A DNA stretch of 53,859 bases from Bdellovibrionales bacterium (GTDB lineage Bacteria > Bdellovibrionota > UBA1018 > CAIMNF01): contig JBEIJY010000015.1 in NCBI GenBank assembly GCA_040380025.1, positions 1 through 53,859 of the forward strand, given 5' to 3'. Of the stretch, positions 14,812 to 51,132 are shown one piece after another. A program made the translations under genes and the position numbers. The notes under the pieces were generated by a model. It was not told where the DNA came from, ran no database searches, and worked only from the letters and a program-made list of their open reading frames with translations. Each line of letters opens with the position of its first letter. Positions within the stretch are counted from its first letter, which is position 1.

Positions 14812-14850
14812 GCGTTTATTTTTCTTTTTTGCTTTTTTTAAAAAAATTTC

Positions 14851-14878
14851 TCAAGTCATCGCGGACACACTCCGATGT
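14851..14878 (+). promoter_or_regulatory. Putative sigma28 (FliA) promoter of flagellin 1
   Basis: TCAA-N16-TCCGATGT about 90 nt upstream of the flagellin start. Confidence 0.65.
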
Positions 14879-14885
14879 GTTCAGT

Positions 14886-14968
14886 GAGCACCTTGTACCG
14901 GTCACGGATTGACCACCAACTCGGGTGCTCGATGTGAAGAAGTGAGTTTGGCCTTCATGGAGGAAGGT
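14886..14968 (+). promoter_or_regulatory. Structured flagellin leader with two CsrA-type GGA hairpins
   Basis: GGTCA-CGGAT-TGACC (14900-14914) nested in the stem GAGCACC/GGTGCTC, plus CCTTC-ATGGAG-GAAGG over the SD. Confidence 0.65.
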
Positions 14969-14969
14969 T

Positions 14970-15815
14970 ATGGGATTGCGAATCAACACGAATGTTCCCT
15001 CGCTCGTTGCCCAGCGAAACTTGCGGTCAAACCGCACAGTTCTCGATCGAACGCTCGAGCGCTTGAGCTCCGGTTCGAGGATCAATCACGCGGGTGATGA
15101 TGCCGCGGGACTCGCGATCTCCGAAACCATGCGGGCACAGATCCGCGGAATCTCCCAGGCCGAACGGAACGCGCAGGACGGAATCTCACTGGTCCAGGTG
15201 GCCGAAGGCGGCCTCGTCGAAGTCTCGAACATCCTGATCCGCATGCGCGAACTCGGGGTCCAGGCGGCATCCGACACGGTCGGCACCCGCGAACGCAAAT
15301 TTCTCGACAATGAATTCCAGCAACTCTCCGAGGAAATCGACCGGATCGCGAATTCGATCGAATTCAACGGAAATCCCCTGCTGAACGGCTCCGGAAGTGC
15401 GTTCGAGGTCCAGATCGGAACCAAGAACAACCCCCTCGTCGACCGGATCAAGCTCTTCGACCCGTATTCCTCGAACGTGAACCTGGTCTCGCTCGGAATC
15501 AATCTTTCGACCGTCGGAGACAAGACCTCGGCCCAGAACTCGCTTGCGAGCATCGACCAGGCCCTGAACACCGTCACCTCGATCCGCGCCGGATTCGGAT
15601 CGATGCAAAACCGTCTGCAGTCGGTGATCACCAACTTGCAGGTGAACCGCGAAAATTTGATGTCCGCCAACAGCCGCATCCGCGACGCGGATCTCGCGGA
15701 GGAGACTTCGGAACTCACGAAGTCCCAGATCCTGAACCAGGCGGGCGTATCGGTTCTTTCCCAGGCAAACTCTTCGATCAAGAGCGTGCTCGGGCTCCTC
15801 GGTGCCCAAGGATAA
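14970..15815 (+). CDS. fliC: Flagellin 1 (281 aa)
   Basis: LRINTN, LSSGSRINHAGDDAAGLAISE, and SRIRDADLAEE...QAN flagellin termini. Confidence 0.97.
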   Translation: MGLRINTNVPSLVAQRNLRSNRTVLDRTLERLSSGSRINHAGDDAAGLAISETMRAQIRGISQAERNAQDGISLVQVAEGGLVEVSNILIRMRELGVQAASDTVGTRERKFLDNEFQQLSEEIDRIANSIEFNGNPLLNGSGSAFEVQIGTKNNPLVDRIKLFDPYSSNVNLVSLGINLSTVGDKTSAQNSLASIDQALNTVTSIRAGFGSMQNRLQSVITNLQVNRENLMSANSRIRDADLAEETSELTKSQILNQAGVSVLSQANSSIKSVLGLLGAQG

Positions 15816-16083
15816 GGGGCGCGTGGAGAGACAAACGATTTTTAGGACGTAGGCGTTGCCTCGTCTGTTTCCTGGATCGATTCCACCCCTCTTGCGTGAA
15901 GAGAGGATCTCCGGTGCGCAGGAGGGGGGATCGAAGGAAGGAAAAACGGTTTCGTTAAACCGCGGTTCGAACGGAGATCGGTGATCTCCGGGAGAACCGC
16001 ACCAGAAAATCGGCATGGATTGCCGGCCGCGGTTTTGGTCGACTGCGGGTGATCATGGAGGACGCTTTTTATGGATGGCTAGT

Positions 16084-16917
16084 ATGGGACTCAGAGTAAA
16101 TACGAACGTTTCTTCGTTGATTGCACAACGGAGCCTGGGCGGGACCCGGGCGGCCTTGAGCAAAAACCTCGAACGGCTTGCGAGCGGCAGCCGGATCAAC
16201 ACCGCAGGCGACGATGCCGCGGGGCTTGCGATCTCGGAGCATCTCCGGGCGCAGGTCCGGGGCCTGAAACAGGCGCGCCGGAACGCGCAGGACGGGATCT
16301 CGCTCGTCCAGGTTTCAGAAGGCGGCCTGAATGAGGTCACGAACATCCTGATCCGCCTCCGGGAACTTGCGATCCAGTCCGCATCGGACACGATCGGAGA
16401 CCGCGAACGGGGCTTCACCGACCGGGAATTCCAGGCGCTGAAGTCCGAGATCGACCGAATCGCGATGAGCACGAACTTCAACGGTACGCCCCTTTTGAAC
16501 GGGCGTGCGGGGATCTTCGAGATCCAGGTCGGAACCGGGAACAATCCCCTGACCGACCGGATCGTGTACGACGGCCAGAGCGCCGATGTCTCGCTCCAGT
16601 CGCTCCGGCTCTCGGGAGAAAGCTGCGGAACCAAACAAGGCGCCCAGCTCACTCTTGCGGTGATCGACGATGCGATCGGGCAGGTCAGCAAGGTGCGATC
16701 CGACCTCGGTGCGGTTCAGAACCGGCTCCAGTCCACCACGAACAACCTCGCGGTGAACGAAGAGAACATGACCGCGGCGAACAGCCGGATCCGCGATGCG
16801 GACCTCGCCGAAGAAGTGTCAGAAATGACGAAGAACAACATCCTGATGCAGGCCGGAATCTCGGTCCTGGGCCAGGCCAACCAAAGCGCGCAGATGGCGC
16901 TGAAACTCCTCGGGTGA
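16084..16917 (+). CDS. fliC: Flagellin 2 (277 aa)
   Basis: Flagellin N- and C-terminal motifs. Start MGLRVNTN chosen by alignment to the paralogs (alternative ATG 16075). Confidence 0.96.
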   Translation: MGLRVNTNVSSLIAQRSLGGTRAALSKNLERLASGSRINTAGDDAAGLAISEHLRAQVRGLKQARRNAQDGISLVQVSEGGLNEVTNILIRLRELAIQSASDTIGDRERGFTDREFQALKSEIDRIAMSTNFNGTPLLNGRAGIFEIQVGTGNNPLTDRIVYDGQSADVSLQSLRLSGESCGTKQGAQLTLAVIDDAIGQVSKVRSDLGAVQNRLQSTTNNLAVNEENMTAANSRIRDADLAEEVSEMTKNNILMQAGISVLGQANQSAQMALKLLG

Positions 16918-49132: not shown

Positions 49133-49370
49133 AGAAGCAAAGACCTTACCCGATAATCGGCAAAAACTCAAAAACTAGCCCCTGAATTGCGCCCGTGCAC
49201 CCTGAATGTGCGTCTTCGCGCGGCGGGTTGCCGCTTTTGGTAAAAAAGAAGCGGTGACGTTCTGACACCTCCTGATCAATTCAAGGGGTTGAATAATTCC
49301 GACGCGCGCCGTTTCTTCATGATTTCAATATCTTACAATAAAATCCGCCCTCTGCGCTAGCTTGGGCGCG

Positions 49371-49387
49371 TTGGCACGGGACTCGCA
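49371..49387 (+). promoter_or_regulatory. Sigma54 (-24/-12) promoter of dksA-1
   Basis: TTGGCAC-N5-TCGCA, with IHF-like AT-rich sites upstream (ATTCAAGGGGTTG ~49270 and TTTCAATATCTTA ~49323). Confidence 0.7.
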
Positions 49388-49478
49388 CTAGGTATGGGTG
49401 TGAGGCGGCCACGATGGCGGCACCACTCTAAAGATCCCCACGGAGCCGGGAAAACCTCAACAATCAGGAGTGAGAGCC

Positions 49479-49892
49479 ATGATGAATCAGGAACTGGTAA
49501 TGAAATTCAAAAAACTGTTCGAGGACCAGAGGTCGGCACTTCTCTACTCCTACAAGCTCGTGAACGAGGACTTCACCATCAAGAGCGAAGACCTCTCGGA
49601 CGAAGTCGACCTGAGCTGTGCCGAGCTCGAGCAGAACATGAAGATGCGTCTGCGGAGCCGCGAGGCGCTCTTCCTGAAAAAAATCGACGAAGCCTTATTC
49701 AAGATTCAAGCGGGAACCTTCGGTGTCTGCGAGTGTTGCGAGCAAGAGATCGAACTGAACCGTCTTGAAGTCCGTCCGACCGCGAACCTGTGCCTGGGCT
49801 GCAAAGAGGAACAGGAAATGCGGGAAACCCGCTCCGCCGACGGACGGAAATCCAAAAGCAACGGCATGAAGACGAACCTTCAGATCGCCTGA
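49479..49892 (+). CDS. dksA: DksA/TraR family protein 1
   Basis: Coiled-coil tip DEVDLS, C4 Zn finger CECC...RPTANLCLGC, SD AGGAG. Confidence 0.9.
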   Translation: MMNQELVMKFKKLFEDQRSALLYSYKLVNEDFTIKSEDLSDEVDLSCAELEQNMKMRLRSREALFLKKIDEALFKIQAGTFGVCECCEQEIELNRLEVRPTANLCLGCKEEQEMRETRSADGRKSKSNGMKTNLQIA

Positions 49893-49929
49893 TGCTCTCT
49901 GGCCACTCTGCCAAAAAACTCAAGACCAA

Positions 49930-50092
49930 ACCCGCTTCAGGATGAGGCGGGTCAATACCGGAATCTCACGGACGAGACGCCCGGTCGCTCAAACGGATTT
50001 GAGCGCATGACCTGAGTTACGGACCGGATGGTCCGGCAAGATGGAATGAAGAACCCCTGGTTCTCATGGATGAGAACCGGGGGTTCTTCATT
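49930..50092 (+). ncRNA. Putative CsrB/RsmY-like GGA-hairpin array (3' UTR or sRNA)
   Basis: Five stem-loops each present GGA in the loop, with three further GGA motifs between or within them (see findings). Confidence 0.65.
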
Positions 50093-50099
50093 TCGAAAC

Positions 50100-50483
50100 C
50101 TAGTGTGCGAGCTGAACCCGTTGACCGGGAATCACGAATCCCATCAGCTTCTCTTCTTCTTCTTTGCAAGAAATGCAGAGAGTCGCCGTCGGGCGCGCAT
50201 GAAGCCTGCGGAGCTCGATGAACTCGTCGCAAGAATCGCAACGGCCGTAGGTGCCGTCCTCGATTCGCTTCAGTGCTTCGTTGATTTTTTTGAGCGTGAA
50301 GATCTCACGGTTCTTGAGCTGCATCCGCATGCTCTGTTCGATGTCGGCGTTCGCCTGATCGACCTCGTCCTTGTCTTCCGGACGCTTCGCGATCTCGACG
50401 CTCCCCGCTCCAACGTTGGTCAGGATCTGGTTTCGCTGTTCGGTAAAGATTCGCTTGAATCTTTCCAGTTCTGTCTTTCGCAT
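50100..50483 (-). CDS. dksA: DksA/TraR family protein 2
   Basis: DEVDQA tip, CDSC...RPTATLCISC Zn finger, SD GGGGAG. Confidence 0.9.
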   Translation of the reverse strand: MRKTELERFKRIFTEQRNQILTNVGAGSVEIAKRPEDKDEVDQANADIEQSMRMQLKNREIFTLKKINEALKRIEDGTYGRCDSCDEFIELRRLHARPTATLCISCKEEEEKLMGFVIPGQRVQLAH

Positions 50484-50535
50484 GGACTCCCCAATCTCAA
50501 ACCCCCGGGTGTTATACTGCGTTGTAAAACTAAAT

Positions 50536-51132
50536 TTAGGGATTTGCCCTCAACCCTCTTAATGCATCCATGACCATTTGGCTAATACTTTCTAACGTCT
50601 CCATCACACCCTCTCCGCGGTTCGCAACCGCCTCGAAGTACGGACGCTTGGTCAGATTGAAGGTTTTTTCGAGCTCTTCGATCGATGCCGCATTTGGCAA
50701 GTCGCGCTTGTTGTACTGGAACACGATCGGTATACGCGCCAAATCATATCCTTGGCGAACCAGGGCCTGCTGAAAGTGGTCCCAGGCCTCGAGGTTCGAA
50801 TCCATCCGCTCGGGAGCGGAATCGACGACAAAAACAACTCCGTCGACGCCTTTTAGAATAAAATCCCGCGAAGCCTCGTAAAAGGTCTGGCCGGGAATCG
50901 TGTACAAGTGGAAGCGCGTTTTGTAGCCGCGAACCTCACCCACGCTCAAGGGAAGAAAATCAAAGAACAGGGTCCGTTCGTTCTCGGTGCTCAGACTGAC
51001 GAGCTTTCCCGAGCGATCGGTCTGGGTGTTTTCGTACACATACTGCACGTTCGTGGTTTTTCCCGAAAGCCCGGTTCCCACGTATACGATTTTGCAATTC
51101 ACCTCTTTCGAAACCGAATTGACAAAGCTCAT
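50536..51132 (-). CDS. mglA: MglA family small Ras-like GTPase
   Basis: NCKIVYVGTGLSGKTTN, ERTLFFDFLPL, FHLYTIPGQ and QYNKRD motifs. Confidence 0.95.
   Translation of the reverse strand: MSFVNSVSKEVNCKIVYVGTGLSGKTTNVQYVYENTQTDRSGKLVSLSTENERTLFFDFLPLSVGEVRGYKTRFHLYTIPGQTFYEASRDFILKGVDGVVFVVDSAPERMDSNLEAWDHFQQALVRQGYDLARIPIVFQYNKRDLPNAASIEELEKTFNLTKRPYFEAVANRGEGVMETLESISQMVMDALRGLRANP

Follow-up and report, generated by a model that had tools for sequence, protein, structure and literature searches.

RNA decoys of CsrA have been characterised almost only in Gammaproteobacteria, where they are stand-alone small RNA (sRNA) genes under the control of GacA/UvrY. The subject of the present analysis is a hairpin array on the plus strand of a 53,859-nucleotide (nt) stretch of DNA from a Bdellovibrionales bacterium (assembly GCA_040380025.1, contig JBEIJY010000015.1, positions 1 to 53,859; the whole stretch is hereafter the window, and its genome is G000), which lies directly 3' of the gene dksA-1 and is considered below as a candidate CsrA decoy in the dksA-1 mRNA's 3' untranslated region (3'UTR). 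The available portion of a 2020 review (PMC7652899) describes CsrB/C and RsmX/Y/Z as independent genes driven by BarA-UvrY or GacS-GacA in lineages without FliW, reports an anti-correlation between fliW and those BarA-UvrY systems by which decoy sRNAs are activated, and states that the joint action of FliW and sRNA in any species "remains to be determined". The RsmA-binding RsmW of Pseudomonas aeruginosa carries several GGA motifs in stem-loops and lies less than 30 nt behind the small ORF PA4570; in the accessible sections of that report (PMC4950607), no terminator is found between the two, RsmW is not expressed without the PA4570 promoter, and the authors infer processing from a 3'UTR.

On our best reading, RsmW would be the closest known design, with multiple GGA stem-loops placed directly 3' of a small open reading frame (ORF) in both cases. 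The present locus differs from RsmW (Miller et al. 2016) in that it belongs to another phylum, follows a sigma-54-driven DksA/TraR-family host gene, occurs in a genome in which FliW is present, and has no sequence or Rfam match to RsmW; additionally, GGA occupies the loops of 5/5 hairpins here, whereas three of the seven GGA motifs of RsmW lie on outer loops in the sections cited (PMC4950607). The array shares with CsrB/CsrC and RsmX/Y/Z the placement of GGA motifs in loops and linkers and the ending in a Rho-independent terminator, multiple CsrA/RsmA dimers being bound in those sRNAs; in contrast to them, it is fused to an mRNA, and its terminator loop is itself a candidate site. A search of Rfam with positions 49300-50600 at expectation values (E) up to 10 returns spurious terminator-type matches only, none of them to CsrB, CsrC or RsmX/Y/Z/W, and nine related loci give no match at the gathering threshold. 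An earlier note, made from the letters of the window alone, had called the array CsrB/RsmY-like; this label is apt for the proposed function and for site layout but not for homology, given the lack of an Rfam match, and as judged from these comparisons the array is not a member of the CsrB/Rsm family by descent, its likeness being functional only. Literature searches on CsrA in Bdellovibrio and on CsrA, FliW, sponges and UTRs, with most subscription journals outside the search, find no description of this element, in keeping with the remark in the earlier note that no example was known from this lineage; the text of Karunker 2013 (PMC3627812) mentions neither dksA nor CsrA.

The 207 nt that separate dksA-1 from the convergent dksA-2 (49893-50099) fold on the plus strand into exactly five hairpins, with the minimum free energy (MFE) and centroid structures of RNAfold in agreement. 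The fold energy is -100.7 kcal/mol, compared with -62.2 +/- 4.3 for shuffled sequences (z -8.93), and 0/200 shuffles equal it. GGA is present in the loops of all five hairpins (GGA, ACGGAC, CGGA, GGAU and UGGA), and three further GGA motifs lie within the same 165 nt. The five GGA-apex hairpins first described from inspection of the letters are thereby recovered by folding, with their positions and strand, as are the additional motifs CCGGAA (49958), ACGGAC (50019) and AUGGAA (50041).

Hairpin 1 (49930..49952) consists of a 10-base-pair (bp) stem with the loop GGA within UUCAGGAUGAG and is followed by the single-stranded linker CCGGAA (49958..49963), which is kept, as CCGGAA or as a nearby GGA, in five of nine aligned sequences of the genus. 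Hairpin 2 (49964..49977) has a 4-bp stem and the loop ACGGAC, at the position of which relatives have CUUCAGGAUGAAG; hairpin 3 (49986..50005) has an 8-bp stem and the loop CGGA; and hairpin 4 (50020..50035) has a 6-bp stem and the loop GGAU, with the ACGGAC motif in its 5' arm. Hairpin 5 (50042..50095) is a terminator-type stem of 24-25 bp with the loop UGGA (UCAUGGAUGA) and AUGGAA at its foot; its orthologue is called as a plus-strand terminator in two relatives (G002 and G004), and in G000 it is probably a two-way terminator that also serves the convergent dksA-2. All of these elements lie on the plus strand, as does the unstructured C/A-rich box CCAnUCUGCC..ACCAAACC (49899..49929), which is located past the stop codon and ahead of hairpin 1. 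Its TCTGCC shows no variation, and the flanking positions are conserved, across 9/9 aligned genus sequences. This box might be a processing site or a Rho-loading site, both of which are guesses. A sigma-28 promoter within the box was considered and rejected, as the match by eye to GCCGATAA-type pre-flagellin elements is poor and there is no room for a -35 element in G000.

The raw density of GGA at the locus is ordinary, since 7,054/93,714 segments of 200 nt contain at least eight GGA triplets. It is the placement of GGA in loops that sets the array apart. When the segments with at least eight GGA at a step of 100 on both strands were all folded (n=3,504), 2,686 showed no GGA loop, 721 showed one, 93 showed two and 3 showed three, and a single segment showed five; that segment is this array, with all five of its loops, and the next best has three. 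The background frequency of GGA in loops is 4.7% (2,635/56,534) for stems of at least 6 bp and 6.7% (31,850/477,530) for stems of at least 4 bp, and the occurrence of four GGA-loop hairpins per 170 nt (stem of at least 6 bp, loop of at most 6 nt) is confined, genome-wide, to this locus. The array region matches only itself within the genome and is not a repeat. It is the clearest case of such an element in G000. Crude counts with 4- or 5-bp stems were dropped as noisy, many coding segments tying with or exceeding the locus.

The relatives compared are uncultured metagenome-assembled genomes (MAGs), and 17 genomes of the genus, including G000, were available. The array is found 3' of the orthologous dksA-1 in 16/17 of them. 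In the 260 nt 3' of the stop codon at these 16 array-bearing loci, counting MFE loops of at most 9 nt on stems of at least 4 bp, GGA is present in 54/92 loops on the plus strand versus 3/83 on the minus strand. A DNA search in 40 relatives aligns only three genomes of the genus, at approximately 70% identity, and the locus is found in 40/40 of the sampled relatives when the dksA-1 protein is used as the query.

Nine sequences of the genus can be aligned, and the RNAalifold helices derived from them comprise 50 pairs and 425 cells. Standard pairs fill 97.2% of these cells, and changes on both sides are observed in 17/50 pairs. In 0/500 shuffles is the level of pairing, the count of covarying pairs or the score for covariation as high as in the real alignment. 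When the partner column is slid by 1-3 columns, only 36-51% of the cells are paired and at most six pairs show two-sided changes, in a comparison that favours the true pairing over the slid versions because the structure came from the same alignment. Hairpins 1, 3 and 5 keep an unchanged GGA in 9/9 aligned sequences, while compensatory changes are found in five of the eight pairs counted in hairpin 1 and in eight of the 15 counted in hairpin 5, and pair 203/212 of hairpin 3 changes from A-U to G-C in 4/9. Homologous loci thus keep their GGA loops over covarying stems, the pattern for which the earlier note proposed to test related genomes. Remoter members of the genus cannot be aligned, yet they carry hairpins such as ACUCAAA-UGGA-UUUGAGU and CUGUGCC-AGGAA-GGCACAG, with ACUCAAA/UUUGAGU, UCUCAA/UUGAGA and CUCAGA/UCUGAG as the stems of hairpin 3.

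The aligned sequences follow a common plan. A GGA hairpin approximately 17-21 nt past the stop codon, present in eight relatives and lost in G000, is followed by an optional hairpin without GGA, by the C/A-rich box, by hairpins 1, 2 and 3, by a short box in place of which G000 has hairpin 4, and by the terminator hairpin with the tip UCA-NGGA-NGA. Hairpin 4 is an insertion unique to G000, its alignment columns being empty in all other sequences, and the modules turn over, G000 having lost the first hairpin of the eight relatives and gained hairpin 4. The box that hairpin 4 replaces, CCUUGUGA(A/G)A before the terminator (alignment A3, columns 252-262), is a second conserved single-stranded box in the relatives.

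The sequence surrounding GGA in 66 loops from the 16 arrays reads (U)(U)(C/A)A-GGA-U-G-A-G with the core (C/A)A-GGA-UG: A occupies position -1 in 46 loops, C or A position -2 in 61, and G position +2 in 51. The most common form is CAGGAUG (16/66). Loops of the CAGGAUG type are reportedly high-affinity sites for CsrA/RsmE (Dubey 2005; Schubert 2007). The array loops, on their short stems, conform to the extended CsrA motif A(N)GGA / CANGGANG, a consensus from the literature. We consider it likely that CsrA would bind the array RNA.

As with RsmW, the array immediately follows a same-strand ORF, and simple scans find no terminator or promoter between the two. This ORF, dksA-1 (49479..49892, plus strand), encodes a 137-residue protein of the DksA/TraR family that combines a C4 zinc finger with a coiled coil at its N-terminus (Pfam zf-dskA_traR, E 4e-11; DksA_N, E 2.3e-7), and its orthologues in the 15 other array-bearing genomes of the genus are 63-81% identical. 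In G000, hairpin 1 is separated from the stop codon by 37 nt; in relatives this gap is 60-100 nt longer, the conserved box included. Simple scans of four loci (G000 and three relatives), limited to sigma-70-type sites, find no sigma-70-like promoter between the dksA-1 stop and the array, and no terminator-like hairpin is found there, which agrees with the observation in the earlier note that no separate promoter is visible. The gene that follows on the opposite strand, dksA-2 (50100..50483, minus strand), is a convergent DksA/TraR paralog according to Pfam, is positioned downstream of a gene for an mglA-like GTPase (50536-51132, minus strand), and is outside the element. In two relatives (G002 and G010), dksA-2 is approximately 1.9-2.8 kb away and other DNA follows, and the array is still found behind dksA-1. 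Because the gap is short, because no intervening promoter or terminator was found, and because the linkage is kept despite the change of neighbour, we infer that the array is a 3'UTR co-transcribed with dksA-1. The 2.35-Mb genome contains five DksA/TraR-family paralogs, two of them in the window, and one of these two is consistently linked to the mglA-like GTPase gene across the order.

Upstream of dksA-1, a sigma-54 (-24/-12) promoter, TGGCAC-GGGAC-TCGCA (49372..49387, plus strand), agrees at 10/11 positions with the consensus TGGCAC-N5-TTGCA. A GG-N10-GC site is located 91-133 nt upstream of the ATG in 16/16 array-bearing loci, with 10/11 positions matched in 13 loci, 9/11 in two and 8/11 in one. 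Approximately 113 bp before the -24 element lies the imperfect inverted repeat GGTG(A/C)-N5-6-GACAC (49253..49268, plus strand), and in a MAFFT alignment GGTGC.....GACAC is kept in at least 13/16 genus loci; this GGTGC-N5-GACAC sequence is a candidate site for a sigma-54 enhancer-binding protein. The A/T-rich stretch GATTTCAATATCTTAC (49321..49336, plus strand), in which the columns T..TT.CA.....TT are partly conserved, separates the upstream site from the promoter; it seems to resemble the IHF consensus and may be an IHF-type bending site. Together, the upstream site, the A/T-rich stretch and the promoter can be read as an arrangement typical of enhancer-dependent promoters. The sigma-54-like promoter of the earlier note is hence supported by its conservation in the 16 genomes, by the conserved upstream site and by the presence of rpoN in G000. 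The sigma-54 pattern occurs at 19 sites genome-wide, which include no obvious flagellar set and do not indicate the signal. A direct repeat, CCCTGAAT(T)GTGCG, is present twice, 21 nt apart, at 49181-49214 of the window; it is seen in G000 only and is not conserved in the 16-locus alignment.

The dksA-1 5' leader (49395..49478, plus strand) contains a 5'-proximal hairpin (49395-49430) with the loop CACGAUG and a Shine-Dalgarno region AUCAGGAGUGA. A 5'-proximal leader hairpin with a CAGGA(U/A)G-type loop is found in 13/16 genus loci; the leaders of many relatives hold further GGA hairpins, and all have an AAGGAG or CAGGAG Shine-Dalgarno sequence. With candidate sites at both ends in the relatives, the dksA-1 mRNA resembles a CsrA target that would at the same time be a CsrA reservoir.

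One csrA gene is present in G000 (PF02599, 92.9 bits; G000:C36:14459-14614), so that the search elsewhere in the genome proposed by the earlier note has located it on contig C36. The CsrA sequence is canonical, its whole core aligns with solved CsrA proteins, and the closest of these is the FliW-bound CsrA of Geobacillus (5DMB). The fliW gene (127.8 bits) directly follows csrA, in the order flgN-flgK-flgL-csrA-fliW. Eight flagellin genes are present in G000, three of them in the window, and on reading of the sequences approximately 3/8 of the flagellin leaders combine a GGA hairpin with a GGA-containing Shine-Dalgarno sequence, some with GGAGGA. With fliW beside csrA in a flagellar cluster and flagellin leaders that carry candidate CsrA sites, the arrangement is that of a FliW-CsrA partner-switch module. 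The earlier note remarked that many other lineages antagonise CsrA with FliW instead of RNA; FliW is present in this one, and the RNA would act beside it and not in its place. In the leaders at 14842-14981 and 15956-16095 (the genes start at 14982 and 16096), the hairpins GGUCAC-GGA-UUGACC and CGGCAU-GGA-UUGCCG are followed by the Shine-Dalgarno region CAUGGAGGA. Two further GGA-rich regions are observed on the csrA/fliW contig: the flgI-flgJ spacer (G000:C36:10490-10700), with more than 10 GGA in approximately 150 nt, several of them as CAAGGA or CAGGA, and the contig end (G000:C36:22300-22390), where the adjacent hairpins GAGCCA-GGA-UGGC and GCCGCA-GGA-UGCGGC are cut off.

The described systems with FliW are similar to this locus in part. 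The CsrA sites of the Campylobacter jejuni flaA mRNA reportedly lie in the flagellin 5' leader. That mRNA is reported, in the part of the article available, to be dual-function in the CsrA-FliW network (Dugar et al. 2016, PMC4894983); a FliW-bearing host and a dual-function mRNA are common to both cases, whereas the candidate sites here are far more numerous and form an array in the 3'UTR of a transcription-factor mRNA. In the Hag-FliW-CsrA partner switch of Bacillus subtilis, the hag leader consists of one GGA hairpin and a GGA Shine-Dalgarno sequence, as described in the cited portions of PMC7652899 and PMC13443453. G000 resembles that system in the pairing of csrA and fliW in a flagellar cluster and in the layout of its flagellin leaders; the difference is that no RNA antagonist is described there, and the array would add one. 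The available part of PMC13443453 also reports that the CsrA of B. bacteriovorus represses a B. subtilis hag reporter.

Beyond the genus, close orthologues of dksA-1 (E at most 1e-33) are found in 25/151 sampled genomes of the phylum, nearly all from the same order. No sigma-54 site accompanies the mglA-linked (dksA-2-type) paralogs of other families, and GGA is present in 1/34 of their downstream loops; for the neighbours of these paralogs the figure is 9/29, and four of the neighbours have a clear sigma-54 site within 220 nt. Inspection by eye of these neighbours reveals several CA-GGA-UG hairpins that are absent from the 260-nt MFE fold. Arrays are found in further MAGs labelled Oligoflexia and Bacteriovoracaceae (L058, L064 with GGA in 6/6 loops, and L066). 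Two paralogs stand in tandem in a MAG labelled Bdellovibrio sp.; the second of them has a sigma-54 site and a GGA leader hairpin, and its short 3'UTR contains two GGA hairpins, one of which is the terminator. A covariance model run against 116 genomes of the order gives strong matches in the genus only, namely the nine training sequences, G009 and G003, with a weak match in G032 behind its dksA; the tally of 33/116 overstates the spread, as 10 of 15 matches inspected are plain terminators without arrays, and the model was judged not useful beyond the genus. At another locus within the genus (L144, G014:C105:666-804; covariance model E 6e-9), three CA-GGA-UG-type loops are followed by a plain terminator.

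The earlier note read the locus as a possible dual-function transcript, encoding an RNA polymerase regulator and bearing a CsrA decoy in its 3'UTR, and the checks that were run agree with this reading, apart from the amendments on homology, FliW and the leader. These results suggest that the approximately 200 nt past the dksA-1 stop codon are the 3'UTR of a sigma-54-dependent mRNA and may be built as an array of CsrA sites. An enhancer-binding protein would switch on the promoter and yield dksA-1 transcripts with the array, each of which, or a stable 3' piece released by cleavage, would hold several CsrA dimers. Free CsrA would then fall and CsrA-repressed mRNAs would be relieved, most evidently perhaps those of the flagellins, since the same kind of hairpins is found in the flagellin leaders of G000. 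FliW, encoded beside csrA, would act in parallel, and CsrA would probably also target the dksA-1 mRNA by way of the leader, to judge from the relatives. To the complete statement, that the co-transcribed dksA-1 3'UTR acts as a CsrA decoy, we assign a probability of roughly 0.55. Titration of CsrA in trans as the main job of the array is about an even proposition, perhaps a shade better.

Several observations weigh against a decoy. In one genome of the genus (G006, a MAG of 620 contigs), the promoter is present and the best-matching gene is only 56% identical, and GGA occurs in 0/4 loops; outside the genus the enrichment of GGA in MFE loops is modest at 9/29. In a crude count, other trinucleotides reach 4-5 loop hairpins at a few sites of the G000 genome, and one repeat on another contig reaches eight. 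The U-run of hairpin 5 is weak in G000, where the terminator scan made no call. The leader loop of G000 and of two other genomes has GA and not GGA, so that the picture of a transcript that is target and decoy at once rests on the relatives. Additionally, the classical view is that lineages with FliW do not use RNA antagonists and that FliW alone manages CsrA.

The main rival explanation is that the array is a cis-acting CsrA platform that controls dksA-1 at the level of stability, 3' decay, Rho access or translation, possibly with CsrA on the 3'UTR bridging to leader sites, and that no meaningful titration occurs. The GGA leader hairpins in 13/16 genus loci, together with the GGAG of the Shine-Dalgarno sequences, fit such control, and a C-rich unstructured box precedes the array. 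Known systems point in the same direction: in E. coli, CsrA represses dksA post-transcriptionally, according to the available portion of PMC7652899, and in P. aeruginosa, RsmA alters the level of the PA4570-rsmW co-transcript, according to the accessible sections of PMC4950607. In the E. coli Csr-stringent circuit (Edwards et al. 2011, as given in PMC7652899), where DksA with guanosine tetraphosphate (ppGpp) also activates the decoys CsrB/C, the tie between CsrA and DksA runs through separate genes, whereas here a dksA paralog and a candidate decoy would share one transcript. However, five to eight sites ending in a terminator far exceed the known cis sites and are in line with decoy RNAs, gain and loss of modules leaves the hairpin number unchanged overall, and G000 keeps the array though its leader hairpin has lost GGA. 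The two roles are also compatible. Purely cis action is unlikely in our estimate, although a contribution from cis control of dksA-1 by CsrA is as probable as one from decoy action, because the leader of the relatives' mRNA has the same kind of hairpins.

A second alternative is that the array has no relation to CsrA and consists of stabilising or terminator hairpins shared by the two convergent genes, or is the site of another RNA-binding protein, in which GGA is incidental. The last hairpin is a plausible two-way terminator, and the minus strand of the array folds equally well, with UCC instead of GGA in its loops. Against this stand the invariance of the loop GGA while the stems change, the strand asymmetry in the genus (54/92 versus 3/83), the extended CANGGAUG motif, the standing of the array as the genome-wide outlier in GGA loops, and its persistence in G002, where the downstream gene is not convergent; we regard this explanation as improbable. 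Least probable of all is that the array is an independent sRNA gene like the classical CsrB and RsmY/Z, transcribed from a promoter of its own that lies within the last part of dksA-1 or is of a type other than sigma-70, with dksA-1 as a chance neighbour, since, although the relatives have 60-100 nt more before hairpin 1, with a conserved box, and the promoter scan was limited to sigma-70-type sites, no promoter-like site is found in the 37-nt gap of G000, the GGA hairpin of the relatives approximately 20 nt past the stop would lie upstream of any such promoter, and the linkage to dksA-1 holds in 16/17 genus genomes and in other families, whatever gene follows.

The preferred reading, a dksA-1 3'UTR that may serve as a CsrA decoy, can be extended to the order: one sigma-54-induced mRNA would encode a DksA paralog that binds RNA polymerase and carry a CsrA decoy in its 3'UTR, with its leader under CsrA control, and would be the first RNA antagonist beside FliW. 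We hold this wider statement tentatively, at somewhat less than even odds. If it is true, an enhancer-dependent transcriptional switch would be tied directly to global translational de-repression in predatory bacteria. Should CsrA bind the array, it would follow that an RNA antagonist can operate alongside a protein one, that decoys can evolve more than once as 3'UTRs, and that the mRNA of a transcription factor can double as a global post-transcriptional signal. A FliW-bearing lineage with a conserved, covarying array of CsrA type makes the open question of FliW and RNA antagonists testable, and cultured predators may be usable for such tests because the MAG labelled Bdellovibrio sp. has a shorter version of the array behind the equivalent gene.

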